In this document: piece by piece, positions 17,576-31,733 of the stretch
Layout of the letters: each line of letters starts with the position of its first letter
Numbering within the stretch: position 1 is the first letter of the stretch
Source: a virus
DNA length: 64,000 bases
IMG/VR virus record: IMGVR_UViG_3300009550_000009
Direction: 5' to 3' (one strand)
Translations under genes and position numbers: made by a program
The notes under the pieces: generated by a model
The model's input: only the letters and a program-made list of their open reading frames with translations
What the model was told of the DNA's origin: nothing
Database searches by the model: none

Positions 17576-17620
17576 TGTGTTAATATACACTTATTGATAC
17601 CTGTAAAGTGTTTTTATAGT

Positions 17621-17728
17621 ATGAAACTAACTGGATCTGAAAAACTCGTCTTCATAATATCTTTTATGATGATGATGAACTGGGGTGTTCGTTTAGCACA
17701 ATCGTTTTTTAATTATGCTTTATTTTAG
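17621..17728 (+). CDS. 35-aa hydrophobic peptide, possibly leaderless
   Basis: MKLTGSEKLVFIISFMMMMNWGVRLAQSFFNYALF; ATG directly follows the repeat core. Confidence 0.5.
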   Translation: MKLTGSEKLVFIISFMMMMNWGVRLAQSFFNYALF

Positions 17729-18146
17729 TCACTCTGGATATGCTTACTCTAAAAAAAGATGTGAGAGCATTGTCAAATGGTTTGTTGAAAGATACTTACC
17801 AAATTATAAACTTGCAATTCATGTTGACCACAAAGGATTAGCAAGAGAGCATGTTGTAGGTTGGTGTTGGAACACCGATAGTAACTCAAGACCTCGTGAT
17901 TTTGAGATTGAGATAGATAATAGACAATGTGCAAAAAGTTACACAGAAACCCTCTTACATGAACTGTGGCACGTTAGACAACATGTCATGGGTGATTTAA
18001 AGAAAACAAGTAAAAAGAAGTTTTGGAAGGGCATAGACCACACTAACAAGTGGGATGATGATTATAACAGCCCATGGGAGTGGCAAGCAAGAGAAATGGA
18101 AACAGTTCTTTATAATCAGTATCATCGTATTTTCCCCTATAATTAA
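17715..18146 (+). CDS. HExxH zinc metallopeptidase-like protein
   Basis: TLLHELWHVRQ and downstream PWEWQA. Confidence 0.7.
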   Translation: MLYFSHSGYAYSKKRCESIVKWFVERYLPNYKLAIHVDHKGLAREHVVGWCWNTDSNSRPRDFEIEIDNRQCAKSYTETLLHELWHVRQHVMGDLKKTSKKKFWKGIDHTNKWDDDYNSPWEWQAREMETVLYNQYHRIFPYN

Positions 18147-18163
18147 ATTAAGGAGGTCATTTA

Positions 18164-18361
18164 ATGAAAGATCAAGGCAAAATTAAAGTTGATTCACCAT
18201 TTGAAAAATGGGACAGAGCAAAGAGTTTATTACTAGAATCTTTGTATAAACCTGATGTCGCATTGCGTTCTTGTTCACACAATCAACAATGTTTTCACGA
18301 AATGATTTCACTACGAGATCAAACTATTGAGTATGTTAGAAGTCTACCTAATCCACATTAG
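18164..18361 (+). CDS. hypothetical protein
   Basis: AAGGAGG RBS upstream. Confidence 0.75.
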   Translation: MKDQGKIKVDSPFEKWDRAKSLLLESLYKPDVALRSCSHNQQCFHEMISLRDQTIEYVRSLPNPH

Positions 18362-18496
18362 GTATTAACTCGTAGGCATAAATTTTTATTACGGATTAAT
18401 TGAAATTTGTTCATTTCCTCACTAAATAGTGATAGAATTAGGGAAGACAAGATGCACTAAAACTTCTTTGCTATTACTATTCTTGGAGAGAAAACC

Positions 18497-18670
18497 ATGC
18501 ACAATCTCGTATCTTACAATCAACTGGCTGGATGGAATAATATAGATAAGTCCCTTGACAGTTCAGTAGAACAAACGGAGATGGTTAACGACTATTTTAA
18601 TTGCCTTGTTGAATGTGATCTCAATGATGCTAATTCAAAACGATACTGTCGAAGTATTTTAACAAAATAA
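18497..18670 (+). CDS. 57-aa Cys-containing protein
   Basis: MHNLVSYNQLAGW...DYFNCLVECD...YCRSILTK; GGAG RBS; terminator downstream; below ORF-track cutoff. Confidence 0.75.
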   Translation: MHNLVSYNQLAGWNNIDKSLDSSVEQTEMVNDYFNCLVECDLNDANSKRYCRSILTK

Positions 18671-18676
18671 ACACAG

Positions 18677-18698
18677 ATCCCCGCAAGGGGATTTTTTA
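18677..18698 (+). terminator. intrinsic terminator
   Basis: ATCCCC-GCAA-GGGGAT followed by a T run. Confidence 0.85.
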
Positions 18699-18738
18699 AT
18701 GTTAGGAAACATAAATAAATGTAAATACAACTTAATAT

Positions 18739-18888
18739 ATGAATGATAAAAAGGCCGCTAAGACAATTATAAAAAGAGCAAGAGAAAATCCCAATTTGTA
18801 TTCAAAAGACGAGGTTAGTTATGCAAAAATGATTAAGAAACGAATTAAACAAAGAAAACTTCTTGACAAAAAAGAAGAAGTAGTCTAA
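18739..18888 (+). CDS. 49-aa basic protein
   Basis: MNDKKAAKTIIKRAREN...; ATAAATA at 18711. Confidence 0.65.
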   Translation: MNDKKAAKTIIKRARENPNLYSKDEVSYAKMIKKRIKQRKLLDKKEEVV

Positions 18889-18891
18889 AAT
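18863..18891 (+). promoter_or_regulatory. sigma70-type promoter
   Basis: TTGACA-N17-TAAAAT. Confidence 0.7.
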
Positions 18892-18914
18892 ATTATCATT
18901 ACAACACATTTTAG

Positions 18915-19217
18915 ATGTCTGATTATAAGGATTACGTTTTTAATCAATTAAATGAAATAATTGATCAAATAATTGAGGAAAAAGAAATTAAATCAAAAGA
19001 AACTTATGATGTCTTTTGTGATTCTTTGCAAAAAAATATTAATTATCATCGAGAGTGTATTGACAAGTGCAAGCAATTACTTTTATTAATGAACGCAGGA
19101 GAACCAAGAGTTACTTCTTATACTGGTGATGACCAATCCCCCGAAGCTAGACATGCGTGGGATGATTTTTGGAATAGTTTTACCCCCCCAAATTCAAAGG
19201 AGAAAGAAGATGATTAA
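18915..19217 (+). CDS. hypothetical protein
   Basis: 100-aa ORF after the promoter. Confidence 0.7.
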   Translation: MSDYKDYVFNQLNEIIDQIIEEKEIKSKETYDVFCDSLQKNINYHRECIDKCKQLLLLMNAGEPRVTSYTGDDQSPEARHAWDDFWNSFTPPNSKEKEDD

Positions 19218-19425
19218 TCTTGACGCTAGGTATCACGATTATTTACATAGTAAAAAAAAGATTTGTGTTGATGGAGTGGAGGAAAGTGTCAAGGCTTACG
19301 GATATAACTGTGACGGAAGTGATATTATAGGTTATTATATAACTACTAACTGCCATAAATTATATTATGATTTGCAAGAAAATTTTCTTCGCAAAGAGTT
19401 AGTATCTGATACCTCTAAAGTGTAA
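19210..19425 (+). CDS. hypothetical protein (start revised to MINLD)
   Basis: GGAG upstream of ATG 19210; C-terminus SDTSKV is encoded by a repeat copy. Confidence 0.7.
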   Translation: MINLDARYHDYLHSKKKICVDGVEESVKAYGYNCDGSDIIGYYITTNCHKLYYDLQENFLRKELVSDTSKV

Positions 19426-19427
19426 CT

Positions 19428-19568
19428 ATGTTAGTTGATTTAAAAAAACAAGAGATTGTGAAAATCTATCAAATTCTTAAAACTAAAAAAGAGGATGATG
19501 TGGTAGTTGATTACCTACATGATAGATTTAAAAAGTTAACCAAAATTTGCACTTGCGAGGAAACCTGA
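19428..19568 (+). CDS. 46-aa hypothetical protein
   Basis: MLVDLKKQEIVK...CTCEET; TGATG coupling to the next ORF. Confidence 0.6.
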   Translation: MLVDLKKQEIVKIYQILKTKKEDDVVVDYLHDRFKKLTKICTCEET

Positions 19569-19720
19569 TGACTGAAAAAGACCCTAAAACTGGATTGTGG
19601 AGACATCCCCAACCCATAAATGATACTGAGAAAATGATTGATGATTTTATTGCTGAGTGTGAAAAACAAGCAGCAAAATTAGAGGTCACAGTTGATTATT
19701 ACATTGCGGAATTTACTTAA
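19568..19720 (+). CDS. 50-aa hypothetical protein
   Basis: MTEKDPKTGLW...AAKLEVTVDYYIAEFT. Confidence 0.65.
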   Translation: MTEKDPKTGLWRHPQPINDTEKMIDDFIAECEKQAAKLEVTVDYYIAEFT

Positions 19721-19725
19721 CTATT

Positions 19726-19887
19726 ATGGAAAAACTTTACAGAATCGAAGAACTCACAACAGAGGGGTGGACACTCTTAGAGGATAAATCTCAAAAACTC
19801 ACAAAAGAAAAATGTGATGAATTACTGAGAAAATATCTAGATGGTGGTGCAAATCCGAATAGGTTACGAGCAGTCAATGACGTATGA
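19726..19887 (+). CDS. 53-aa hypothetical protein
   Basis: MEKLYRIEELTTEGW...GANPNRLRAVNDV. Confidence 0.7.
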   Translation: MEKLYRIEELTTEGWTLLEDKSQKLTKEKCDELLRKYLDGGANPNRLRAVNDV

Positions 19888-20227
19888 ACCAAAAGTAAAT
19901 GACTATGTTAAGTGGACAACAGCACTAGGCATGGTGCATGAGGGGTGGGTTTATTTTAAAGCACCCCCATCAGAGCATAAAAAGGGGTGGAGAAAACCAG
20001 AAAGGTATATCTCAATAGAAATTGCGACAAAACCAAGACGACAATGTGATATATCTACGTTTTTACATAAACGTATTCATGTATGTCTTTGTTGCTATGA
20101 GAATAATTGGCATGAATTAACCTATATTAGGAGAAGAGTTAGTAAACAAGATGATTCTGACCCTGATGAAGCAATAAGTTATGGTGCATATAAATCTCAA
20201 CAATACAGACCGCTTGATATTCAGTAA
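19877..20227 (+). CDS. hypothetical protein (start revised to MTYEP)
   Basis: In-frame ATG avoids a long overlap with 19726. Confidence 0.7.
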   Translation: MTYEPKVNDYVKWTTALGMVHEGWVYFKAPPSEHKKGWRKPERYISIEIATKPRRQCDISTFLHKRIHVCLCCYENNWHELTYIRRRVSKQDDSDPDEAISYGAYKSQQYRPLDIQ

Positions 20228-20268
20228 TTGATACCATTAAAATGTTTTAGTAATGAATTATTTGAATT

Positions 20269-20886
20269 ATGGCAGAAGTCCAACTACATGGAAATAACTT
20301 TGAAGATCTCAAAATTAGAGAACTCACAGGTTTAAGTAAAAAAGATTACGACTCTTTAAAAGGTAAGGGTGGATATACTTCCGCAATGGATTTGATTGAA
20401 GGTCTGATTGTTGATAAAAATTACAGTATCAAAACTGCGAAGGGAAACAAAGTTGATTGTGGAGATATTCTTAGAAGAATGAAAGAAGATAATTATACAA
20501 TTATTGTAGGTCAATGGTCACAAGATGGATTGCAGAAAATTTTTCATACTGAATACACATTTAATATAAAATCAGAGGATAAGGAAAAATTATGGGGTAA
20601 TATGAATTATGATGATGTTGTTTCATTCGATAAGTTTATTAAATCAATACCACATGGTAAAGAAGGACAGCAGACAACAAAAGAGGAGAGAGAAATTAGG
20701 AAGAATAAAATATCATGTGATAAAGCCCTCATGTCTATTCACCCAAAAGTAGATAGTAAAAATCAAAGAAGAGTTCAATGCTCATTTAAAATATCTGATT
20801 TGATAAAGTCAGGTATTGATTATCAAGCAAAAGCAATTAAATTTTCAATAGAGTCACCTTCTCGAACATTTAATAACAAAAACTGA
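20269..20886 (+). CDS. putative restriction-endonuclease-like nuclease
   Basis: HG..FE helix, then D...SIK, resembling a variant PD-(D/E)xK site; stop codon is the repeat TGA. Confidence 0.45.
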   Translation: MAEVQLHGNNFEDLKIRELTGLSKKDYDSLKGKGGYTSAMDLIEGLIVDKNYSIKTAKGNKVDCGDILRRMKEDNYTIIVGQWSQDGLQKIFHTEYTFNIKSEDKEKLWGNMNYDDVVSFDKFIKSIPHGKEGQQTTKEEREIRKNKISCDKALMSIHPKVDSKNQRRVQCSFKISDLIKSGIDYQAKAIKFSIESPSRTFNNKN

Positions 20887-20909
20887 TACCTCTAAAGTGT
20901 TTCAGTAGT

Positions 20910-21002
20910 GCGAGAACAAACCAACTTAAGACTTTCAAGGTAGCGGATACCCAAAGAAAAACGCTTTTAAATCGAACTTAAGCAGTTGAGTTTTGTTCTC
21001 GC
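20910..21002 (+). ncRNA. structured RNA candidate (long rod hairpin; sRNA or 5' leader)
   Basis: GCGAGAACAAA 20910-20920 pairs perfectly with TTTGTTCTCGC 20992-21002; inner CAACT/AGTTG, TAAG/CTTA, GGTA-GCGGA-TACC. Confidence 0.6.
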
Positions 21003-21028
21003 CCACCCAATAAAATCGCACAAAAATT

Positions 21029-21208
21029 ATGACATCATCTGAAGTATTACTTGAATTAAGAGAACTTAAGGAAGCATGGAAAAAACAAAATTTCGTGTTC
21101 AACGAAGGTCAACAGATAAGATATGATAATCTTCTTCAAAAACGTAGAGGTTTTGTCAAATCATGGTTTGAAAATGGTCTTGTCTATAAAAAAACCGCAT
21201 CTAAATAG
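21029..21208 (+). CDS. 59-aa hypothetical protein
   Basis: MTSSEVLLELRELKEAWKKQNF...; below ORF-track cutoff. Confidence 0.7.
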   Translation: MTSSEVLLELRELKEAWKKQNFVFNEGQQIRYDNLLQKRRGFVKSWFENGLVYKKTASK

Positions 21209-21229
21209 TATATAAGACATTTAGAGAAG

Positions 21230-21781
21230 ATGAAAACATTTCGGGAGTTTACAACAGAAGTTTATGACCCAGAGGTTCAAGGTCGTTCACAGATCCGCAA
21301 GATGGGTCAAGGTGGTCGTATTGGACAGGAGAGGAAAAAAACTGCTCCCGAAAAAAGGAGAATGAAGGCAGCTGGAGGTGGGAAGATGGTTCCAGCTAAA
21401 GATTATAAAGATCGCAAAGATATTGGTAAGGACAGAGCAAGATCAGAGAGAGAGCAACAACCAACTCAAACAAGAGGATCTGCAGCCCTTACACCTAGAG
21501 AACAACAAAAAAAAGCAAGAGCCGAGAGAATGGCAAGTAAATCGGGTAAGAAAACACCTAGAGAACTTGCGAAAGCGGCACAAAAGTTGTTACAAAAGAA
21601 AAAAGAAAAAAAAGTAGATCCAAAATATAAACCAGCAAAAGCAAGTGGATTAACGAGAGCAGAGAGACAGCAGATAAACAGAGCTGGTAAGAGATTAGTA
21701 AAAGATATGCAATCAGGTAAAGATAGACCAAGATCAGCATATGAGCCCGGAATGAGTGTTGCAATGAGAGGAAAAGAGTAG
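21230..21781 (+). CDS. basic protein with T4 capsid-targeting-like N-terminus (putative internal head protein)
   Basis: MKTFREFTTE; K/R-rich; CTAAATA late promoter at 21201. Confidence 0.6.
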   Translation: MKTFREFTTEVYDPEVQGRSQIRKMGQGGRIGQERKKTAPEKRRMKAAGGGKMVPAKDYKDRKDIGKDRARSEREQQPTQTRGSAALTPREQQKKARAERMASKSGKKTPRELAKAAQKLLQKKKEKKVDPKYKPAKASGLTRAERQQINRAGKRLVKDMQSGKDRPRSAYEPGMSVAMRGKE

Positions 21782-21882
21782 ATTTAGTATCATAAACTGA
21801 TACCACCAAATTGTTACTATTGTATATCACCATGGCAAATCTATTGTCATGTGGTATAATATTATTATATTATTGATTATTG

Positions 21883-23073
21883 ATGATTGAATTAAGACCA
21901 CATCAGAAGAGTGCTTTAGATGCTATGAGTGCATCAGATAAAGGACAGATCATAGTTCCTACTGGTGGTGGTAAAACTATGTGCATGATTGAAGATGTCA
22001 AGAGACAATTCAACAGTTCAGTAAATAAAACTGTTGTAGTTGTTGCACCTCGTATATTGCTTGCAAATCAATTATGTTCAGAGTTTTTAGAGCAGAATCT
22101 CGATAGTAACTATAATGTTGGTGTAGATGTGATTCATGTTCATAGTGGAGAGACACATTTTTACAGCACAACTAAGACTGATAAGATAAAGAAGTGGTAT
22201 CACAATAGCACCAAACATATTATTATGTTTACTACATACCATTCACTTCATAGAGTGCAAGAGAGTGGTATTCATGTAGATACAATATACTTTGATGAGT
22301 CACATAATGCAGTTCAAAAGAACTTCATTGAAGCAGTTGAGTATTTCTCAATGTATGCAGAGAGATCATACTTCTTTACTGCTACACCAAAACATTCACT
22401 TACACCTTTTAAAGTTGGAATGAATGATGTTGACATTTTTGGTCAAGTAATTTGCAATGTTCCTGCACCTAAATTAGTGAAGCAAGGTTATATATTACCA
22501 CCAAAAGTTGTTATTAACAAGATTGATTTACAAGATGATAGTAGATTTTCATACGAGCAAGATTGCGATTGTGTAATAGAAACTATTGATAATCAAGATG
22601 TGGATAAGATTTTAATTTGTGCAAGATCAACAAAACAAATTGTCAATTTAGTTACTCATACATCATTCATTCTTGATTTATATTCTCGTGGATATTCATG
22701 GATGATGATTACATCTAAAACTGGTGCAGTTATAGATGGTAAAAAAGTAAACAGAGAGGAGTTTTTCAATACGTTAAATACTTGGGGTAAAGATTCTGAT
22801 AAAAGATTTGTTGTATTACATCATAGTATATTATCTGAAGGTATCAATGTAAAAGGATTAGAAGCTGCTATGTTTCTAAGGAATATGGATTATATTGGTA
22901 TATCTCAAACTATTGGTAGAGTGATACGCAAAGGGGACGAGAGTAAAACATTTGGATTGATTTGTGTTCCAGTATATGATAAAGTTGGTATCTCTACTTC
23001 TCGTAGAGTTGAAGCAGTTGTCGATACTGTATTCAATCAGGGTCAGCCCGCAATTAGTGTAGTTAGGAATTAA
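21883..23073 (+). CDS. superfamily 2 (DExH) helicase
   Basis: PTGGGKT, DESH, TATP, LSEGINV and QTIGRVIR motifs. Confidence 0.9.
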   Translation: MIELRPHQKSALDAMSASDKGQIIVPTGGGKTMCMIEDVKRQFNSSVNKTVVVVAPRILLANQLCSEFLEQNLDSNYNVGVDVIHVHSGETHFYSTTKTDKIKKWYHNSTKHIIMFTTYHSLHRVQESGIHVDTIYFDESHNAVQKNFIEAVEYFSMYAERSYFFTATPKHSLTPFKVGMNDVDIFGQVICNVPAPKLVKQGYILPPKVVINKIDLQDDSRFSYEQDCDCVIETIDNQDVDKILICARSTKQIVNLVTHTSFILDLYSRGYSWMMITSKTGAVIDGKKVNREEFFNTLNTWGKDSDKRFVVLHHSILSEGINVKGLEAAMFLRNMDYIGISQTIGRVIRKGDESKTFGLICVPVYDKVGISTSRRVEAVVDTVFNQGQPAISVVRN

Positions 23074-23220
23074 ATGAAATACATTTTCAAAATAGACGAT
23101 TTTCAATTAACCGAAGACGAATATGATCTTTGGTCAGATAATCAATTATCAGTTCAAGAAATTTTGGACGATAGAATATCAAAAGATGAAATTAATATCT
23201 ATATTGATGTTAAGAACTGA
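23074..23220 (+). CDS. 48-aa acidic protein
   Basis: MKYIFKIDDF...IDVKN*; stop is the repeat TGA. Confidence 0.6.
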   Translation: MKYIFKIDDFQLTEDEYDLWSDNQLSVQEILDDRISKDEINIYIDVKN

Positions 23221-23257
23221 TACCTCTAAAATGTTTTAACAATGAATAAGCATTATT

Positions 23258-23473
23258 ATGAAAGTAAAAGAATTACTAAACATTTTGAGTGATGCCAAAC
23301 CTGATGATAACATCACTTTCTATTACTTGGAAAAAAACACTCTCGCTAATTCTACATTTGAATCATTCTTTGATTGCAACTATGTAGATGTAAATGGAGT
23401 TGTTGATTGGGAACTAACAGTTCAAAACACTATGGAATACTTAGAGGAGAACTCAGACAATGATGACAGTTAA
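23258..23473 (+). CDS. hypothetical cassette protein
   Basis: Follows repeat 23218. Confidence 0.75.
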   Translation: MKVKELLNILSDAKPDDNITFYYLEKNTLANSTFESFFDCNYVDVNGVVDWELTVQNTMEYLEENSDNDDS

Positions 23474-23621
23474 CATAAACGATTTTGTTACAGATGATGA
23501 ACTTTCACTTCTATGGAAGATTGCAGAGCGTATAATAAAGGAGGGGCATGTATATAATGACCCAGACTATAAAATCCAATTAAATCTTATTACTGAAACA
23601 TGGAGGCCTGATGAAAATTGA
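23460..23621 (+). CDS. 53-aa hypothetical protein
   Basis: MMTVNINDFVTDDELSLLWKIAE...; GAGGAG upstream. Confidence 0.6.
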   Translation: MMTVNINDFVTDDELSLLWKIAERIIKEGHVYNDPDYKIQLNLITETWRPDEN

Positions 23622-23817
23622 ACTTAACGAAAAAGAACAACAGTATCTTATTGATTCTATGATGTTCTATTCAACATTCATGCAGTATTTTAAAAATGAT
23701 AATCGAGGGTCATATTCTCGATTAATAAAACAGTATCAATACTGGTATGATAAAGACGATAGAAAAGAATGTCAACAAACATTTGAAAAAGTTTTGAGAG
23801 CAGATAAACAAAACTGA
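23611..23817 (+). CDS. hypothetical protein
   Basis: GGAGG RBS; stop is the repeat TGA. Confidence 0.75.
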   Translation: MKIELNEKEQQYLIDSMMFYSTFMQYFKNDNRGSYSRLIKQYQYWYDKDDRKECQQTFEKVLRADKQN

Positions 23818-23854
23818 TACCTCTAAATTGTTCCTACAGTAAGAGTTAATTATT

Positions 23855-24130
23855 ATGACAAACAGAAACAGCGATGCTCTCAATGAGCAAATACTAGAAA
23901 ATCTAACACCCGAACAACTACAAGAACTTAAAGAGTTGTATGTTGAGAGACTTGTTGATAATATGTCAACAAAAGATTTAGTTCGTTATGTCTTTGACGA
24001 TATGACACAATATGTTGATAAGCAATCACCTGTTGAGTTTTTTGATGATGCTTACAGTTACTTTGATGACTACTTTGATGAGATAGTCGAGGAAATCAAA
24101 GGCGGTCAATCTGTAAACAATTTAAACTAG
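23855..24130 (+). CDS. hypothetical cassette protein
   Basis: Follows repeat 23815. Confidence 0.8.
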   Translation: MTNRNSDALNEQILENLTPEQLQELKELYVERLVDNMSTKDLVRYVFDDMTQYVDKQSPVEFFDDAYSYFDDYFDEIVEEIKGGQSVNNLN

Positions 24131-24139
24131 GAGATCAAA

Positions 24140-24436
24140 ATGAATGAAGAACTTTACACAATTCAAATAACTCGTAGAGAGTTGGGATTAATCAAACATT
24201 ACTCTCATTTATTATTTGCAAATATTGATGATGATGTTTCATCTGATGGTGGTTCATGCACAGGCAGTTTTCCGATAGAAAAAGATTGGTTCGGTAAAGA
24301 TGCAATCAGAGGTCTTTATCGTAAAACAAAGAATATTGCAGATACTCATTATAATGATGATGAGGAATTGCAATTAGATAAAAGTTTAAGATACTCTACC
24401 AACATGAAATCTACATGGCCTTGGTTACAAAACTGA
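24140..24436 (+). CDS. hypothetical protein
   Basis: AGGAG RBS; stop is the repeat TGA. Confidence 0.75.
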   Translation: MNEELYTIQITRRELGLIKHYSHLLFANIDDDVSSDGGSCTGSFPIEKDWFGKDAIRGLYRKTKNIADTHYNDDEELQLDKSLRYSTNMKSTWPWLQN

Positions 24437-24474
24437 TACCTCTAAAATGTTCTTATAGTATAACACAAAACAAC

Positions 24475-24507
24475 ATGATTACAGCATTTTTTACAGGAGT
24501 ATTCTAA
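24475..24507 (+). pseudogene. truncated copy (MITAFFTGVF*) of gene 26142
   Basis: 24430-24500 matches 26097-26167 at 70/71 nt. Confidence 0.8.
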
Positions 24508-24791
24508 TGACAATGACCGCAAAAGAGTTTATGCAAGAAGTTTACGAAATTGCATTTGGACATGAAGCATACTACAGAGGATTTTTTCCAGAGGAAGTTG
24601 TCGAGAGACTACAAGATTTTTCAGATGGATCAAATCCAATTCTTATTGAAGATGCTTATAATGAGATAGAAGAATTAAAAACTTCACTTACAGAACTAAG
24701 TGATGCAGACCTATTAAATTCCAGACAAGCTCTTATTAATCAAACAAATAGAGTTATGGAAGCATTAAATGAAATAGGAACTGATGAATAA
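24507..24791 (+). CDS. hypothetical protein
   Basis: 94 aa; TAATG-coupled to the remnant. Confidence 0.75.
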   Translation: MTMTAKEFMQEVYEIAFGHEAYYRGFFPEEVVERLQDFSDGSNPILIEDAYNEIEELKTSLTELSDADLLNSRQALINQTNRVMEALNEIGTDE

Positions 24792-24839
24792 TAATATTAT
24801 TGATACCTCTAAATTGTTCCTTTATTAGATTATGAAATT

Positions 24840-25757
24840 ATGAAAAACACACACCTTGAACACCCCGAAGATTCCATTCTAACTGGTGATCTTACCGCAC
24901 TTGATTGGATGTCTGAAAAGAACAGTCATATATCAGTCAAGATTGATGGAAGTCCAGCTATCGTATGGGGACGTAACCCTGCAACTGGAAATCAATTTGT
25001 TGGAACTAAATCTGTATTCAACAAAAAGTTAATTAAGATATGCGAATCAATCGAGGATATTGATAAGTTTTATAGTGGTGATTTGCGTGACATATTAACA
25101 AATTGTTTTGTTAATTTACCTATCACAAAAAACATTTATCAAGGTGATTTCATCGGGTTTGGTGGTAATTATTCTTACACACCTAATACAATTACATATA
25201 AGTTTGACCGTATTATATCACAAAGAATAATAATTGCACCACATACTGTTTATGAATCACAAAAAGATTTGCGTGATGCAGTTGCAAACCCTCTTTTAAA
25301 TAATCTATCATCTACAACAAATGTTTTATTTGTATCACCTGATTGTGGTATAGTTAATGACAATGAGTTAATTAAATTACAGGTTAATTTTGCTAAACAA
25401 ATGGCAACATTATGTGAGTTCCCAACAGAAAACAAAGTAATTGCACGTTTAAAAAAACAGATTAATACATGTATTCGTGAGGGAATTGAATTAGATGAAT
25501 TAACACAAGATGCACTTGCTAATGATAACGAAGTTGACTTAAATGTTATTAGATTGTGGAAATTAGTGGAAGCAATTAAGATTCAATTGTTTACATATAT
25601 TCATGTAGATGAGAGTATTGAATGTGAAATAGAGAACCATAATGTTGACCATGAAGGTTATGTAATGACCAACAAATTCGGTTCATTTAAGATTGTAGAT
25701 CGAGAGGTATTTTCATTCTTAAATTTCAATCTTTCAAAAAATCGTGATACAAACTGA
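24840..25757 (+). CDS. putative ligase-superfamily nucleotidyltransferase
   Basis: KIDG, YQGDF, HEGYV and FKIV match ligase motifs I, III, IV, V in order; stop is the repeat TGA. Confidence 0.5.
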   Translation: MKNTHLEHPEDSILTGDLTALDWMSEKNSHISVKIDGSPAIVWGRNPATGNQFVGTKSVFNKKLIKICESIEDIDKFYSGDLRDILTNCFVNLPITKNIYQGDFIGFGGNYSYTPNTITYKFDRIISQRIIIAPHTVYESQKDLRDAVANPLLNNLSSTTNVLFVSPDCGIVNDNELIKLQVNFAKQMATLCEFPTENKVIARLKKQINTCIREGIELDELTQDALANDNEVDLNVIRLWKLVEAIKIQLFTYIHVDESIECEIENHNVDHEGYVMTNKFGSFKIVDREVFSFLNFNLSKNRDTN

Positions 25758-25806
25758 TACCTCTAAAATGTTCCTATAGTAAGAATTGAATTATTTTTTC
25801 AAAACA

Positions 25807-26061
25807 ATGACTGACGAAATTTTATCACTAGAGTTTGGAAGAACATTTTGGTTAGATGAAGATGGAGAGTTACGTTCTGCACCAACTTTCAAAAATGGTG
25901 AAACCGATTATGAAAAGTGGGATTATGTATCAGAGTGGCAAGATCTTGAAGGTATCAATCTTGATGCTTTACTCAACATTCATAAAAATTTAGTTATTAA
26001 AAACTATATTGAGACCACTGAAAAGTTTAATTTTAGATACCAAGTTTTAAAAGGAGCATAA
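25807..26061 (+). CDS. hypothetical cassette protein (start revised to ATG)
   Basis: Follows repeat 25755. Confidence 0.75.
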   Translation: MTDEILSLEFGRTFWLDEDGELRSAPTFKNGETDYEKWDYVSEWQDLEGINLDALLNIHKNLVIKNYIETTEKFNFRYQVLKGA

Positions 26062-26065
26062 CATC

Positions 26066-26125
26066 ATGTCATTAAATACACCACATAACGTAACACAAAC
26101 TGATACCTCTAAAATGTCCTTATAG
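26066..26125 (+). pseudogene. 5' remnant of a paralog of gene 26938, running into a repeat
   Basis: MSLNTPHNVTQT vs MTINTPFNVTLT (29/38 nt identical); AAGGAG RBS. Confidence 0.6.
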
Positions 26126-26141
26126 TATAACACAAAACAAC

Positions 26142-26375
26142 ATGATTACAGCATTTTTTACAGGAGTTGTCGTAGCAATTCCAACTTCACTTATTACAAT
26201 GAAGTTACTAAACAGTTCACTTTTTATCAGTAATGAAGAATTAAGGGAAGCAAACGCTAAAATTAGTCTCATTATTAATAACTTAGATGACTTCAGAGAA
26301 GAGAGACTTGCCGATAAAATGGAGAGACTTGGCATAACTGATAAACTTGATAAGAGACTTGAAATAAAAAATTAA
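26142..26375 (+). CDS. small protein with N-terminal hydrophobic helix
   Basis: Follows repeat 26101. Confidence 0.75.
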   Translation: MITAFFTGVVVAIPTSLITMKLLNSSLFISNEELREANAKISLIINNLDDFREERLADKMERLGITDKLDKRLEIKN

Positions 26376-26427
26376 TACATCAACTGATACCTTTAAACTG
26401 TTCCTATAGTATAAGATCAAATTAATT

Positions 26428-26667
26428 ATGAAAAAATCATTTATTGTTGAAGATGTAACAGCAAACTTAGACAAGATCACTTGTTTAACTGATGAAATAA
26501 TAGAGGGTATTAATTTTAGATGCCTTAATGCTATTGGTGTATGGCATACAGAAGGTAATGATGCAGAAGGAGATTTATGGGATAAAGTTGAAGCATATAT
26601 TGGTGTTCCTTTAGGTGGTTTAACATACTGTAAAAATCAACCACACAAACTTACTTCTTTTAAGTAA
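26428..26667 (+). CDS. hypothetical cassette protein
   Basis: Follows repeat 26385. Confidence 0.8.
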   Translation: MKKSFIVEDVTANLDKITCLTDEIIEGINFRCLNAIGVWHTEGNDAEGDLWDKVEAYIGVPLGGLTYCKNQPHKLTSFK

Positions 26668-26710
26668 GTGATACCTCTAAATTGTCCCTTATATGTAAGA
26701 CTTATTAAAA

Positions 26711-26938
26711 ATGCCACTTAAAAAAGAAATTTTTGATCGAATCACTCAAGAACGAGAAACATTTATGAACGAGCAACGAGCAAACGAGGAACTCAATATT
26801 GAGTTAGAATATGAGAGAGTCAAGGAGCAACGCTACAAGGCCTTTCAAGAGTGGTTAAACGATTGTCCACTTGTAGTAACTGACTATCAAGATTTTACAA
26901 CTGAATTTCAAATTACTTTCAATCTGGAGGCTGACTAA
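26711..26938 (+). CDS. hypothetical cassette protein
   Basis: Follows repeat 26669. Confidence 0.75.
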   Translation: MPLKKEIFDRITQERETFMNEQRANEELNIELEYERVKEQRYKAFQEWLNDCPLVVTDYQDFTTEFQITFNLEAD

Positions 26939-27183
26939 TGACTATCAACACACCATTTAATGTAACACTAACTGAAGGCCAAATAGGTATTATCTTATGC
27001 AGTTTAGAGGATAGTGTTAAAAAAAGTGAGCATATCAGAAGTAAAGACAATATAATATTACAACCATTTGATGAATATTGTCAATCAGTTGACTCTATTT
27101 TTGAAATTTTAGAGGGTGTAGTTGATAGGCATTATGATAAGATAGAAAAGGCTCAAAGTAAACAACCAGAAATGGAATGGTAA
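26938..27183 (+). CDS. hypothetical protein
   Basis: GGAGG RBS; TAATG coupling. Confidence 0.75.
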   Translation: MTINTPFNVTLTEGQIGIILCSLEDSVKKSEHIRSKDNIILQPFDEYCQSVDSIFEILEGVVDRHYDKIEKAQSKQPEMEW

Positions 27184-27233
27184 TAATAATTGATACCTTT
27201 AAAATGTTCCTATAGTATAAGATCAAATTAATT

Positions 27234-27476
27234 ATGCACAACTTCAAAGAATTTTTAGACTACTGCGAATCATTCTACATGCCTAGTCATCCTGACGTAT
27301 TATACCCTATTGATGGATTATCTAGGGGAGAGTTAGCACTTGCTACTCTTACATATCTTGATTTATGTTCAGAATGTGAGTCAATCAACTGGGGTGATGG
27401 TGATTCCTTAGATCGAGAGAGAGTCAGGGATCAGGTATTTCAAACTAGAGCAGTAAATTCAGTTAGTCTTAATTAA
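27234..27476 (+). CDS. hypothetical cassette protein
   Basis: Follows repeat 27191; WGDGDSLDRERVRD. Confidence 0.8.
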   Translation: MHNFKEFLDYCESFYMPSHPDVLYPIDGLSRGELALATLTYLDLCSECESINWGDGDSLDRERVRDQVFQTRAVNSVSLN

Positions 27477-27528
27477 TACTAACTGATACCTCTAAAATGT
27501 TCCTATAGTATAAGCAAACATCAAAATT

Positions 27529-27717
27529 ATGAAAATGACAAAAGTTGAAGTAGTTGCATCATTCAGAGAATCATGGGCTGACGTTGTTGCATCTGATCCT
27601 ATGTGGAGAGGAGACAAGATCGCCAAAAGATGTGCATTTAATGATTTTGTTGATATGCTTAACAAAGATGGCATGGTAACAGATCATCAAGCAAACAACT
27701 GGAGCAATCCATTTTAA
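27529..27717 (+). CDS. hypothetical cassette protein
   Basis: Follows repeat 27484. Confidence 0.8.
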   Translation: MKMTKVEVVASFRESWADVVASDPMWRGDKIAKRCAFNDFVDMLNKDGMVTDHQANNWSNPF

Positions 27718-27770
27718 TTGACTCAAACTGATACCTCTAAACTGTTCCTATAGTATAAGCAATCAAAAAA

Positions 27771-27947
27771 ATGTCAACATTACATCACGAATCATTATTA
27801 GAAACTTGCTTTGATGAAGCAGTCGAAGCATTTTGTTCTCACAATCAGTTAACGCCAGAAATGTTTGCTGAGATAGAGCATCATCAAGGAGTTCAAATAG
27901 CATTGGAAAATGCTGCAAACCAAAGATTTGAGGATTTATTACAATGA
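27771..27947 (+). CDS. 58-aa cassette protein
   Basis: MSTLHHESLLETCFDEAVE...; follows repeat 27729; ATGA overlap with the next ORF; missed by the ORF track. Confidence 0.8.
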   Translation: MSTLHHESLLETCFDEAVEAFCSHNQLTPEMFAEIEHHQGVQIALENAANQRFEDLLQ

Positions 27948-28135
27948 AAAATGACCAAGAAATTCTAAACAATGTTGAAATTCTAAGCAAATATCATATT
28001 GATAGATTCCAACATTTATTAGACAATGATCGAAAAGATGACGCAATTTCAATCATGCAAGAATATGTAAGTAAAGGAGAAGTTGAAGATGACGATTATC
28101 AATGGTTATATGTAAATTATCTTTTTAAAAACTGA
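27944..28135 (+). CDS. hypothetical protein
   Basis: Stop is the repeat TGA. Confidence 0.75.
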   Translation: MKNDQEILNNVEILSKYHIDRFQHLLDNDRKDDAISIMQEYVSKGEVEDDDYQWLYVNYLFKN

Positions 28136-28176
28136 TACCTCTAAAATGTTCCTATAGTAAGCAATCCAATTAAATT

Positions 28177-28377
28177 ATGACCAGAAAAGAATACGAATTA
28201 GTTTTCCAAGCATTAAAATCTTATAGATGCTACATGAGCAGAGAAGATGAAGCATTATCTGAAAAAATTCTAGATGATTTATTCTATCCTAGTTTTGATA
28301 AACTATCAACTGATGATTTAGTAGCAGATGCAGAGGAAGCACTTAAAAATGAAGTTAAAAGTTTGAATTTTAGATAA
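28177..28377 (+). CDS. hypothetical cassette protein
   Basis: Follows repeat 28133. Confidence 0.8.
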   Translation: MTRKEYELVFQALKSYRCYMSREDEALSEKILDDLFYPSFDKLSTDDLVADAEEALKNEVKSLNFR

Positions 28378-28427
28378 TTCAAACTGATACCTCTAAACTG
28401 TTCCTATAGTATAAGACAAACAAAATT

Positions 28428-28871
28428 ATGACCACACTTGAAACAACTGATCTAAAAACAAGAGTTGCAGAATGGACTCAAACCTATGCAAATGCAATTA
28501 CTCAAAATTATAGAGAGTATCATCTAAATATGCTCACCAGACAAGGCCACCCATATCCAGAGTATGCGAAGCAGCAGTTAGATGAAATTGACAATGGAAC
28601 AGCGAACCTAATGAAGTTCAAAGTTAAAACTGGTAAGAGATATTACAAAATTGTCCAGATGGAATTTGACACTTTCCAGAATCGCAACGAATATAGGGAA
28701 GGATCAGTTCATGCTTTTGTTGATCGCAATACTGGAGAAGTTTTCAAACCAGCATCATGGGCAGCACCAGCAAAGCATGTAAGATATGATATGAGAATTA
28801 TTAGAGAGAGAAATTTCTTACATGATCCCTCTAATGTAACATGGGCAGGTGGTTATCTCTACATGAGATAA
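28428..28871 (+). CDS. hypothetical cassette protein
   Basis: Follows repeat 28385; HAFVD..TG.V.KPASW.APAK.VRY motif. Confidence 0.85.
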   Translation: MTTLETTDLKTRVAEWTQTYANAITQNYREYHLNMLTRQGHPYPEYAKQQLDEIDNGTANLMKFKVKTGKRYYKIVQMEFDTFQNRNEYREGSVHAFVDRNTGEVFKPASWAAPAKHVRYDMRIIRERNFLHDPSNVTWAGGYLYMR

Positions 28872-28924
28872 TCACTAATTGATACCTCTAAAATGTTTCT
28901 ATAGTATAAGATACAATTCACATT

Positions 28925-29134
28925 ATGACTAAAACTCAAACAATCATCAACAGAATACTTGAAGTAGATAACTTTCAAAATATGGCATGCTGTTGTGCTA
29001 ATTGGCAAGAGTTTACTCAAGAGTTAGAAGAGTGGGGAGTTACTGGATGTGCAAAAATCGAATTTGATGATCCAGAGTTACATATCCCTATGTTAGACCA
29101 GTTTATCAAATCTGAGAATGGTTACATCAGATAA
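28925..29134 (+). CDS. hypothetical cassette protein
   Basis: Follows repeat 28880. Confidence 0.8.
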   Translation: MTKTQTIINRILEVDNFQNMACCCANWQEFTQELEEWGVTGCAKIEFDDPELHIPMLDQFIKSENGYIR

Positions 29135-29195
29135 TTAACTCAAACTGATACCTTTAAAATGTTCCTATAGTATAAGCAATCAATCAATTCACATC

Positions 29196-29528
29196 ATGAG
29201 AAAAATCGAAACCCAAATGAATCAAGCAATCAGAGGACAGAGAAACTGGGCAGGTTCAAATACAACAGTCTTTACTGATGATGCAGGTTTATATTCTACA
29301 GTTTACTTGCATGGCAATAAAATTGCTTCATACTCTCATGTAACTAGAGACTTAGAAATTTTAGATGGCGGTTGGCAATCTAACACCACAAAGTCTAGAT
29401 TAAATGCACTTCTCTCAGAGTTCAAACCTGCATTTGGTGTATTTCAAAAAAACTGGCAGTGGTTTATTTCAGACCGCCTAAACAATAAAGTTTTTCCTTT
29501 CATATCAGGAGGTTTAATTACTTCTTAA
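29196..29528 (+). CDS. hypothetical cassette protein
   Basis: Follows repeat 29146; GGWQSNTTKSRLNAL. Confidence 0.85.
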   Translation: MRKIETQMNQAIRGQRNWAGSNTTVFTDDAGLYSTVYLHGNKIASYSHVTRDLEILDGGWQSNTTKSRLNALLSEFKPAFGVFQKNWQWFISDRLNNKVFPFISGGLITS

Positions 29529-29534
29529 TTAACT

Positions 29535-29572
29535 GGAAGTATTACGGATTAATTCTATAATACTTCCTTTTT
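29535..29572 (+). terminator. intrinsic terminator
   Basis: GGAAGTATTA/TAATACTTCC 10-bp stem plus T run. Confidence 0.7.
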
Positions 29573-29699
29573 ATTTTCTCTCGTTAGTTATTAATGGGCC
29601 TCCGCAATTCTCTTCCTTACGAGATGCGAAAGCGATTTTTTAATTAACACTAACTGAAACCCCCAAACTGTTATTATTGTATAGGATTATTTTTTTATT

Positions 29700-29804
29700 A
29701 TGGAACTTTTCATTTTACTAGGCGGGTGTTATGCACTTTATACTGTAGGCATGGCAATCGCAACAGAAATTGACTATCGAAATCAAATCGACAAAAATAA
29801 GTAA
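29700..29804 (+). CDS. 34-aa membrane peptide
   Basis: MELFILLGGCYALYTVGMAIATEID...; follows repeat 29655. Confidence 0.65.
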   Translation: MELFILLGGCYALYTVGMAIATEIDYRNQIDKNK

Positions 29805-29859
29805 CACTTACTGATACCTGTAAACTGTTACTATAGTATCAGAGACAAAAAACATTATT

Positions 29860-30018
29860 ATGAACAATTCAAAACTTGAAATCGTAAGATCATTTTTCAC
29901 AGACAGTGAGTGGGATGCTATCGACTCCGCACTTGCTGATTATCAAGATTACGGAGATAATCAAGCAGAGTTAGCATCACAAATTGGTGATAAGATTTAC
30001 AATCTATTTAATAATTAA
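29860..30018 (+). CDS. 52-aa cassette protein
   Basis: MNNSKLEIVRSFFTDSEWDAID...; follows repeat 29812. Confidence 0.75.
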   Translation: MNNSKLEIVRSFFTDSEWDAIDSALADYQDYGDNQAELASQIGDKIYNLFNN

Positions 30019-30031
30019 GGAGCATAATTTG

Positions 30032-30172
30032 ATGTCTTATTCTACAAAAGATTTTAACAAAGATGTTGATAAGTTACGCAAATTAATTGAAAAATGTGAA
30101 CAATTAGAAGAGCAACAAAATGCAGTAAGATTATACAAACCTTTTCGCAATTTAAACAACTATTTAAACTAA
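30032..30172 (+). CDS. 46-aa protein (start revised to MSYST)
   Basis: AAGGAG RBS. Confidence 0.6.
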   Translation: MSYSTKDFNKDVDKLRKLIEKCEQLEEQQNAVRLYKPFRNLNNYLN

Positions 30173-30175
30173 ACT

Positions 30176-30340
30176 ATGCAGACCTTAACTCACACTAATT
30201 ACAACGAAATTCTACGTCTTTATAACAACGAAAGTAAGGATGAGATAGTAACACAAACTACCTACGAATTTCAAATTTTTGATGATTATTATTATCAGTT
30301 ATTTCACAGTTATTATGAAACAAATAAGGGGGCAAATTAA
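30176..30340 (+). CDS. 54-aa hypothetical protein
   Basis: MQTLTHTNYNEILRLYNN...; abuts its neighbours. Confidence 0.55.
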   Translation: MQTLTHTNYNEILRLYNNESKDEIVTQTTYEFQIFDDYYYQLFHSYYETNKGAN

Positions 30341-30508
30341 ATGATTATTTCTATCACAAAAAGGATTAAATTACCCTCTGGAAAGTATAAGAAACGTGTC
30401 AAATATTCAACTGTAAAGTATCAAATAGAGAAGGTAAAACCAAGAAGATCGCATTATAAATTAAGTAGTTTACATGCTGCTAAGTATCATTTAGTAAGAG
30501 AGAGTTAA
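30341..30508 (+). CDS. 55-aa basic protein
   Basis: MIISITKRIKLPSGKYKKRVK... Confidence 0.5.
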   Translation: MIISITKRIKLPSGKYKKRVKYSTVKYQIEKVKPRRSHYKLSSLHAAKYHLVRES

Positions 30509-30644
30509 TCTGTTAGTTTTACACAATATAGAGGTAATTCTGTGGAAAACTTATTTAATTGTGGAAAAGAATGTATTTAAAAATATATTTAAGCGTTTTA
30601 TTTCTCGATTTAATGTTAGATTTTATAGTGATCTTAGCGAGCGT

Positions 30645-30673
30645 ATTATACCACGAACGCCCGAAAATTGCAA
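30645..30673 (-). promoter_or_regulatory. minus-strand sigma70-type promoter
   Basis: Reverse complement reads TTGCAA-N17-TATAAT with an extended -10 TG. Confidence 0.65.
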
Positions 30674-30712
30674 GGGGCGGATAATACTTTTGTCAGAACT
30701 TACGCATAATTA

Positions 30713-30741
30713 TTGACAAGAATTATGAAATAATATACAAT
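30713..30741 (+). promoter_or_regulatory. sigma70-type promoter
   Basis: TTGACA-N17-TACAAT. Confidence 0.75.
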
Positions 30742-30757
30742 GGTTATATAACACTTA

Positions 30758-30940
30758 ATGGCTGCACAGTTTATGACAATTTCCGCGTCTAATTTACAGC
30801 AAAAACAGTATCGAATTACGCTGAATTTGTCAGTTCAAAGTGACTTTAATCCCCATCAAATTAACTATGAAAAGTTATTCAAATTAGATGAGGATTTGGA
30901 AGCCCTAAGTGTAACAATTGAGGACTTAAATTATGAGTAG
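30758..30940 (+). CDS. hypothetical protein
   Basis: 60-aa ORF downstream of the promoter. Confidence 0.7.
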   Translation: MAAQFMTISASNLQQKQYRITLNLSVQSDFNPHQINYEKLFKLDEDLEALSVTIEDLNYE

Positions 30941-31004
30941 TTAGTGTTAGTTTTCCACAGCTGTTATATAACATTATATGAAACCTGTAAAGTGTTCTTA
31001 TAGT

Positions 31005-31157
31005 GTAGGGAGCAGAGATAGTGAAGAGGGAGACGCGAAGGTTAAGGAGGTTTAAAAAACCATTATTCCAAAACTTCGTTAGTGCGCACTTAGTCCCACT
31101 CTTGCAATGCGGAGCTCCGCCTCTAGTTTAAGTGACTAGATGTAAGTATCCCTACCA
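31005..31157 (+). ncRNA. multi-stem structured RNA candidate
   Basis: Closing stem GTAGGGA/TCCCTAC; AAGAG/CTCTT, CGAAG/CTTCG, TCTAGT/ACTAGA; GC-rich, no credible ORF; starts right after repeat 30979. Confidence 0.6.
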
Positions 31158-31318
31158 GTCTTTTAACAGTCCGTTACGTGATATAGCAGTTATATGCGGG
31201 CGTTGTTGTTATGGGGGCGGGCGCGATGCCGTTTTAAAAAACCCTTAAGTCCCTAACCTACAGAGGTGACAAATCGATAGCTAAATATTAAACCATATTA
31301 AATTTTTTTTTCTTGGCC

Positions 31319-31429
31319 ATGGGAACACACTACGGATTCACAATAATTGTATGGGTTATAATTGGGTTAATAATATTTTCCAAGTTAGATAGTGGGGGCA
31401 AAAAGAAAAAGAAACGCAAAAACAAATAA
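31319..31429 (+). CDS. 36-aa membrane peptide with Lys tail
   Basis: MGTHYGFTIIVWVIIGLIIFSKLDSGGKKKKKRKNK; CTAAATA at 31281. Confidence 0.6.
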   Translation: MGTHYGFTIIVWVIIGLIIFSKLDSGGKKKKKRKNK

Positions 31430-31438
31430 AAAATTTCC

Positions 31439-31460
31439 GGGGGCTCAAAACCCCCTTTTT
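31439..31460 (+). terminator. intrinsic terminator
   Basis: GGGGG-CTCAAAA-CCCCC-TTTTT. Confidence 0.75.
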
Positions 31461-31496
31461 AGTGTTTTCTAAATACTAATAACATGATTTAAACAC

Positions 31497-31733
31497 ATGA
31501 AAGAATTTGACGATACAGTGTATCACATCTATGCAAAGGATAAATGTCTTTATCATAATTTAAAGGAAGAAGATTTTGAAGAGACATGGCAACTTCTAAC
31601 CACTATGGTTGGATTAATCAAGACAGATTATTCAGAGTCAGATCTATCATATATTAAGTTAGCACCGAAGGTCGGGTATGGTGGGCCAGGTAAGGTAATA
31701 TACACAGAACCAACTGGAGATGAGTCTTATTGA
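31497..31733 (+). CDS. hypothetical protein
   Basis: CTAAATA at 31469. Confidence 0.8.
   Translation: MKEFDDTVYHIYAKDKCLYHNLKEEDFEETWQLLTTMVGLIKTDYSESDLSYIKLAPKVGYGGPGKVIYTEPTGDESY

Follow-up and report, generated by a model that had tools for sequence, protein, structure and literature searches.

A lineage-restricted, putatively structured 151-nt insert preceding a widely conserved non-coding leader in T4-like cyanomyoviruses

Does a self-complementary, non-coding segment that directly follows a promoter-like repeat in a cyanophage genome work as a folded RNA, and in what capacity might it do so? The segment (151 nt, positions 31005-31155; hereafter the element) lies in a 64,000-nt stretch of viral DNA (hereafter the window; IMG/VR record IMGVR_UViG_3300009550_000009). 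The window is from a T4-like cyanomyovirus (Kyanoviridae), and its nearest named relatives are the Synechococcus phages Bellamy, S-SM2, and SynMITS9220M01 and the Prochlorococcus phage P-TIM68. The record nearest to it, G001, is a 72.7-kb IMG/VR fragment that is 35% complete, and one metagenome contig (L130) is completely identical to the window over the region compared. The + strand carries all genes, all 23 copies of the repeat, and a strand-asymmetric CAGT motif, and we found no switch of GC skew around 31 kb of the window. The GC content of the element is 45%, versus 32% locally.

A sequence-only reading of this stretch had described a multi-stem RNA of about 150 nt, and our sequence check located every motif that it listed at the position given. 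More specifically, copy 23 of the 26-bp repeat (30979-31004) ends immediately before the first base of the element, whose closing stem (GTAGGGA at 31005, TCCCTAC at 31149) is followed by CAGTCTTTT at 31156. The nested helices are AAGAG (31024) with CTCTT (31099), CGAAG (31036) with CTTCG (31074), and GGTTT (31049) with AAACC (31057); the palindromes are AGTGCGCACT at 31081 and GCGGAGCTCCGC at 31109; and the loop TTAAGTG (31128) of the hairpin TCTAGT (31122)/ACTAGA (31135) is complementary to CACTTAG at 31087. RNAfold predicts a four-helix domain (P1 to P4) for the element, in which P2 is a long interrupted arm. When the 326-nt leader is folded in full, the element is again predicted as an independent domain with the same fold as alone. 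Its parts are as follows:

31005-31011 with 31149-31155, + strand: P1, the closing helix of 7 bp (GTAGGGA/TCCCTAC), invariant in the window, L131, and the G001 type (variants introduced below).
31021-31131: open reading frame of 36 aa through the element, with a GTG start, from the ORF list.
31024-31034, + strand: 5' strand of the P2 base (AAGAGGG-GAC), from the minimum free energy (MFE) fold; invariant in all full-length variants.
31035-31092, + strand: variable tip of P2, with CGAAG/CTTCG, GGTTT/AAACC, the Shine-Dalgarno-like TAAGGAGGT, and the palindrome AGTGCGCACT, delimited from alignments.
31093-31103, + strand: 3' strand of the P2 base (GTC-CCACTCTT), from the MFE fold and the variant alignment.
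31109-31120, + strand: P3 (GCGG-AGCT-CCGC), a 4-bp hairpin with a tetraloop and equally a 12-nt palindrome; invariant in all variants.
31122-31140, + strand: P4 (TCTAGT(T)/(G)ACTAGA), an invariant stem with a hypervariable loop (TTAAGTG in the window).

The thermodynamic and palindrome parts of the observation are modest, close to chance level. The exact element has an MFE of -43.4 kcal/mol with z = -2.07 (3 of 200 shuffles were as good), and its opposite strand has z = -2.49; z is -0.77 when 5 to 20 nt of flank are included, and -0.96 for the nearest variant (the G001 type). Perfect palindromes of at least 10 nt number 66 in the window where about 94 are expected, and those of at least 12 nt number 18 where about 26 are expected, so that the two palindromes are not special in themselves. 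For a 7-nt loop, the chance of matching some 7-nt complement within 150 nt is roughly 0.1-0.2, as estimated without a dedicated tool.

A special role of the palindromes, in dimerization or as operators, had been suggested from the letters, and this suggestion was not supported: they are not above chance, and the AGTGCGCACT segment is wholly replaced in the G001 type. Operators would imply that, a short way past the promoter, GCGGAGCTCCGC, AGTGCGCACT, and TCTAGT-N7-ACTAGA act as DNA sites for a dimeric protein of the phage or its host, which we consider improbable. Perfect palindromes with no spacer typify protein-binding sites, the fold signal is alike on the two strands, and the G001 type has another 10-nt palindrome, AGCTGCAGCT, where the window has AGTGCGCACT. 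However, these two share no common sequence, the density of palindromes is that expected by chance or lower, and GCGGAGCTCCGC occurs once in the window and nowhere else in 139 related loci, so that no regulon of such sites is visible.

The search for a known identity was likewise negative. As the sequence-only reading had anticipated, no recognized family fits: at gathering thresholds Rfam 15 matched nothing in the 64-kb window, and at E values up to 10 across 30500-31500 it gave two chance-level matches, both outside the element. ARAGORN called no tRNA or tmRNA gene in the window. A tRNA-like element was considered and rejected; P1 resembles an acceptor stem in having 7 bp, but 8 nt separate it from P4, and the P4 loop is not T-loop-like. 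Also rejected was a terminator made of P1 and CAGTCTTTT, in that no site was called there and the T-run lies 4 nt past a stem enclosing 137 nt. CAGTCTTTT is no terminator tail, because it is the first of the leader's three CAGT repeats and is present in relatives that lack the stem. When the element was assessed as a MITE-like insertion, the 7-bp terminal inverted repeat was present; the flanks showed no duplication (TATAGT on one side, CAGTC on the other), and the window and the 72.7-kb G001 record have a single copy each. A single copy per genome fragment and the lack of a target-site duplication make the element unlike an active mobile element.

Coding fared no better. That the ORF at 31021-31131 (36 aa, GTG start) is a mini-gene, or the remnant of one, is highly improbable, even though the frame is open and a perfect Shine-Dalgarno-like TAAGGAGGT sits at 31043-31051. 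No ATG, GTG, or TTG follows TAAGGAGGT at a usable distance, third-codon positions are no less conserved than the rest, and in the G001 type the replaced segment shifts the frame, which then stops after 13 codons; on this last ground coding by the ORF was rejected.

The features that flank the element are as follows:

30979-31004, + strand: promoter-like 26-bp repeat (TGAWACC-N3-AAA-N-TGT-N8-T), 23rd and last copy.
31156-31190, + strand: three CAGT repeats (31156, 31167, and 31187), the start of a widely conserved leader.
31191-31290, + strand: conserved core, made up of a tract rich first in G/T and then in G, an A-run (corresponding to TATAAAAA of relatives), the 21-mer, and CTAAATAT after it.
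31252-31272, + strand: invariant 21-mer CCTAACCTACAGAGGTGACAA, occurring once in the window.
31319-31429, + strand: hydrophobic and basic mini-ORF of 36 aa, the first ORF of the proposed transcript.
31439-31455, + strand: intrinsic terminator-like hairpin with a T-run, the first terminator called downstream of the promoter repeat.

The 23 copies of the 26-bp repeat span 17595-31004 of the window, all on the + strand, with 0 expected by chance, and start codons lie at +1 to +27 past the copies. The repeat may be a phage-specific (middle-type) promoter, and the copy at 30979-31004 probably drives a transcript that begins with the element. Its geometry is that of neither a sigma-70 promoter with a 17-bp spacer nor an obvious alternative. 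If TATAGT (30999-31004) were a sigma-70 -10 box, the start would fall near 31011, and RNA initiated at the promoter would lack the 5' arm of P1 and could not form that helix; if the invariant TAAAnT (repeat positions 10-15) were the -10 box, the start would lie about 5 nt before 31005. Neither -10 reading gives canonical geometry. Downstream, no terminator-like site was called on the + strand from 31005 to 31439, and the element would therefore head a single transcription unit. The 36-aa ORF at 31319-31429 matched no PHROG family.

A second structured leader in the window, at 20910-21002, bears on where such transcripts begin. It too starts at the first base past a repeat copy, and it has an 11-bp closing stem and an MFE of -25.8 kcal/mol (z = -3.8; 0 of 200 shuffles as good), which makes it statistically much stronger than the element. 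That both closing stems should begin in this register would be hard to put down to chance unless the 5' end lay at, or just before, that base. The register that the two have in common points to transcription beginning at that base or a few bases earlier, and to a paired 5' end as the selected feature.

Which genomes carry the element, and how it varies among them, was determined by exact-block scans of IMG/VR and JGI metagenomes. It was found in only four lineages, namely the window (= L130), L131, L127 (the 5' part of which is missing at a contig end), and the G001 type (L126, L128, L129, and L132); these four carriers stand among more than 130 related contigs. The P3 sequence was found only in the 10 loci that have the element. 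The element is absent from the phage isolate collection and known only from uncultured contigs. A covariance model (R1), built on the four variants with 28 pairs, returned nothing credible from 1.1 Mb of related phage loci; its best match (18 bits, E = 0.06) fell on an unrelated part of L074.

L131 and the window are identical at 148 of the 151 positions of the element (98%); the corresponding values are 88% for both the neighboring 60-codon ORF and the core, 89% for the CAGT region, and 73% for the promoter spacer. This excess over the flanks is significant (Fisher p = 2.7e-6; 1.4e-4 leaving out the spacer), and the block of high identity matches the structural borders of the element. In the G001 type, P1, the P2 base, P3, and the P4 stem match the window exactly, about 51 nt of the P2 tip are swapped for about 20 unrelated nt that form small hairpins again, and the P4 loop is exchanged for a longer unrelated one. 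The P4 loop differs in 4 of 4 variants (TTAAGTG in the window, TTAAATG in L131, TAATTCCCAACCG in the G001 type, and TTAGTAG) on a constant stem.

All 28 core pairs are invariant among the four variants, with no compensatory change, and the core stems are therefore uninformative on pairing. L131 has three point differences, two of which disrupt weak MFE pairs outside the shared core. Unpaired junctions are conserved as much as the stems, so that recent spread fits this pattern as well as selection does. The variants also spoke against the pseudoknot that had been envisaged between the loop at 31128-31134 and 31087-31093, which could be checked in two of them (in L127 the partner is lost at the contig end). 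A G-to-A change in the L131 loop places a C opposite an A while CACTTAG is unchanged, and in the G001 type loop and partner are both replaced, with no complementarity between the replacements.

The same variants frame the main rival to a functional RNA, which is that the element is a DNA module, recently spread by recombination among related phages, with no RNA function of its own; near-identity would then reflect recency. We regard this as possible, although rather unlikely. The site is a mosaic. L019 is 99.5% identical to the window downstream, yet it lacks both the 26-bp repeat and the element and has a different segment of about 100 nt at the element's site; SynMITS9220M01 has a 49-aa ORF there, and Bellamy has almost nothing. 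The L019 comparison marks the site as a recombination hot spot and the element as dispensable to the downstream genes. A module of this kind would also agree with the restriction to four lineages, with junctions as conserved as stems, and with two strands that fold equally well. On the other hand, the high-identity block ends at the structural borders of the element, both large replacements sit exactly on helix tips and leave the core helices intact, and the element, with one copy per genome fragment and no target-site duplication, is unlike an active mobile element.

As a separate observation on this neighborhood, a non-coding block (GTGATCTTAGCGAGCG...) at 30620-30700 of the window (L001:1060-1140; L002:845-915), upstream of a 60-aa ORF (phrog_12516), is kept in Bellamy, SynMITS9220M01, and L019.

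An invariant P4 stem under a loop that differs in 4 of 4 variants would also suit a free small RNA acting in trans, cut at the base of P1, with the P4 loop (perhaps together with the P2 tip) as its specificity determinant. The loops of plasmid copy-control RNAs and of the P1/P7 c4 RNA are specificity-type loops, to which such a loop may be likened, and paired 5' and 3' ends are a trait of stable phage RNAs. We nevertheless consider this unlikely: the reverse complement of the 13-nt G001 loop matched no better than a reversed control in G001 (72.7 kb, 35% complete), the internal partner CACTTAG of the window does not covary with the loop, and no terminator or processing signal is evident past P1.

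We tentatively prefer to read the element as a lineage-restricted structured 5' domain of the leader transcript that would act in cis; that it works as a folded RNA at all is plausible on the predicted model. The cis-acting domain is favored because the two leaders share their register right after the repeat. According to this model, the promoter repeat would give rise to an RNA of about 450 nt that comprises the element, three CAGU repeats, the G-rich tract, the 21-mer, and the 36-codon ORF, and that ends at 31439-31455. The element would form an autonomous four-helix domain (closing P1, long P2, P3, and P4) at its extreme 5' end, and with that end paired into P1 the leader and mRNA could be shielded from 5'-end-dependent decay; such a stabilizer assumes dependence on cyanobacterial RNase E/J. 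Alternatively, the base of P1 might define a processing site.

Consistent with a cis-acting domain are the position of the element after the repeat, its place in one putative transcription unit, its predicted autonomous fold, its tight conservation, and its modular tips, and further the broken ORF, the raised GC content, and the + strand agreement of genes, repeats, and CAGT motifs. Counting against it are a marginal fold energy that is similar on both strands and not significant in the G001 type or with short flanks, the lack of any compensatory substitution, the L131 changes that break weak pairs, junctions as conserved as the stems, the reading of TATAGT as a -10 box, and the existence of L019 without the element. 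The proposal of a novel phage ncRNA, made from the letters, thus survives in part. The segment is non-coding, belongs to no Rfam family, and is more tightly conserved than its flanks; the pseudoknot and the role of the palindromes dropped out, and so did the description of the segment as a "last cassette", because it is not free-standing cargo.

Rather, the element is an insert that heads a much older leader, placed between the promoter-like repeat and a widely conserved non-coding leader region. This leader, whose single-copy conserved part lies at 31186-31290 in the window and at L001:1490-1590 and L002:1500-1600, was found with its 21-mer in at least 120 IMG/VR contigs that lack the insert (L003-L122), and the 21-mer is present, unannotated, in six cultured cyanomyoviruses: Bellamy (core at 73.78-73.87 kb), S-SM2 (58.85 kb), S-SCSM1, SynMITS9220M01, P-TIM68 (58.34 kb), and, partly, S-SSM7. 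Bellamy and SynMITS9220M01 share the stretch matching 31186-31290 of the window. The conserved leader region has no annotation and no Rfam family, our literature search found no mention of the 21-mer core, and the region is not mentioned by Sullivan et al. (2010). In most relatives the usual order is a sigma-70-like promoter, about two CAGT motifs, a G/T-rich and then a G-rich tract, TATAAAAA, and the 21-mer. CAGT occurs 215 times and ACTG 22 times in 108 related leaders, and the motif is thus strand-specific. The 21-mer includes a 7-nt Shine-Dalgarno-like GAGGTGA, after which there is no start codon.

The promoter of the relatives lies about 100-120 nt upstream of the 21-mer, and a GC-rich inverted repeat holds its TTGACA -35 box, either in the loop or high in the stem. 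The sequence of this inverted repeat varies by lineage, and complementarity is kept in 60 of 75 distinct sequences; to judge from the sequences, it looks as if the upstream gene ended in a terminator hairpin that overlaps the promoter after it. TTATGT was observed after the inverted repeat (for example in L004, L013, L023, L034, L038, L068, and L079). In the window's lineage, the phage's own 26-bp repeat and the 151-nt element replace this usual promoter-in-hairpin.

Past the 21-mer, most relatives have small peptide ORFs and then genes for a YHIYAK-type protein (about 70 aa; phrog_2626) and for a larger protein (about 255 aa; phrog_1574); function is unassigned in both families, and the conserved leader region invariably precedes the two. 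Two families of tiny ORFs were seen between the leader and the YHIYAK gene, one encoding very basic peptides of 25-45 aa (MGVKWIHKGGYSRPDKR...KKK) and the second hydrophobic peptides of 42-55 aa with PYWNFWKVVFAGWLIRYP; example loci are L034, L039, L042, L005, and L055, and L014, L025, and L041. In their place, the window has the 36-aa hydrophobic and basic ORF (31319-31429), and then the terminator.

RNAalifold applied to the conserved core returned an invariant 4-bp ACCU/AGGU hairpin and nothing more: the core showed no further consensus RNA structure and no covarying column pairs. As far as the alignments go, conservation of the core is at the level of primary sequence. In prokaryote assemblies, the 21-mer had seven matches, all on contigs of metagenome-assembled genomes (MAGs; L133-L139) labeled as Chloroflexi, Gammaproteobacteria, Polynucleobacter, Woesearchaeota, and Euryarchaeota; Synechococcus and Prochlorococcus genomes had no match. 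Six of the seven contigs are probably mis-binned phage DNA, because they share downstream phage genes with viral contigs; L133 (Chloroflexi, groundwater), which is without such genes, may be a chance match. A host origin of the 21-mer was rejected, the matches being confined to MAG contigs, six of them with phage genes downstream.

A broader reading would take all of 31005-31290 as an uncatalogued, promoter-driven, non-coding regulatory region of more than 100 cyanomyovirus lineages, to which the element is an exchangeable add-on whose P4 loop and P2 tip set a lineage-specific target or partner. We think this quite unlikely as a whole; if it applied, the region could serve as a master translational or transcriptional leader or as an R-loop primer region for replication.

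Known phage and bacterial RNAs offer partial likenesses to the proposed cis-acting domain. 5'-terminal stem-loops of the E. coli ompA leader type stabilize bacterial and phage mRNAs and are single hairpins. The element resembles them as a predicted helix at or near the 5' end before a long untranslated leader, in that it would act in cis, and in that no conserved sequence is needed; unlike them, it is a 151-nt four-helix domain and known from sequence alone. The stable RNAs species 1 and 2 of T4 (rnaC and rnaD) are structured RNAs of about 120-140 nt, encoded in the tRNA cluster and processed like tRNAs. By description, not by sequence, the element is like them in being structured, with paired 5' and 3' ends, from a T4-type phage, and of no known function; it differs in that the window has no tRNA genes and the element has no T-arm-like hairpin beside its closing stem. 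The put RNA of HK022 is a promoter-proximal, cis-acting leader RNA, and the element is likewise a predicted multi-stem RNA that directly follows a putative early promoter, with a terminator (31439-31455) and then conserved genes further on, although no evidence of sequence or structural homology links the two. Read-through of the terminator is independent of the element, because L019 has the same terminator and lacks the element.

Structured RNA motifs from cyanophage and marine sequences that are catalogued in Rfam include manA, wcaG, glnA/Downstream-peptide, PhotoRC-I/II, and Cyano-1/2 (Weinberg et al., 2010; PMC2864571). The element is similar to these as a folded non-coding candidate in an intergenic region of T4-like cyanophages; in contrast, none of them matches it (whole window at gathering thresholds; 30500-31500 at E up to 10). 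It matches nothing catalogued and would add a member to the broad class of structured leader RNAs in phages.

Should the element prove to be a working RNA domain, it would constitute a new phage RNA family. It would then also be a case of modular RNA-domain evolution, in which an early transcript of abundant ocean viruses has a 5' end with fixed helices and exchanged tips. Of more value as a lead is the conserved leader with its 21-mer, widespread and unannotated, which is shared by the at least 120 contigs and the six cultured cyanophages and is open to direct tests in cultured phages, among them Bellamy, S-SM2, P-TIM68, and S-SCSM1.
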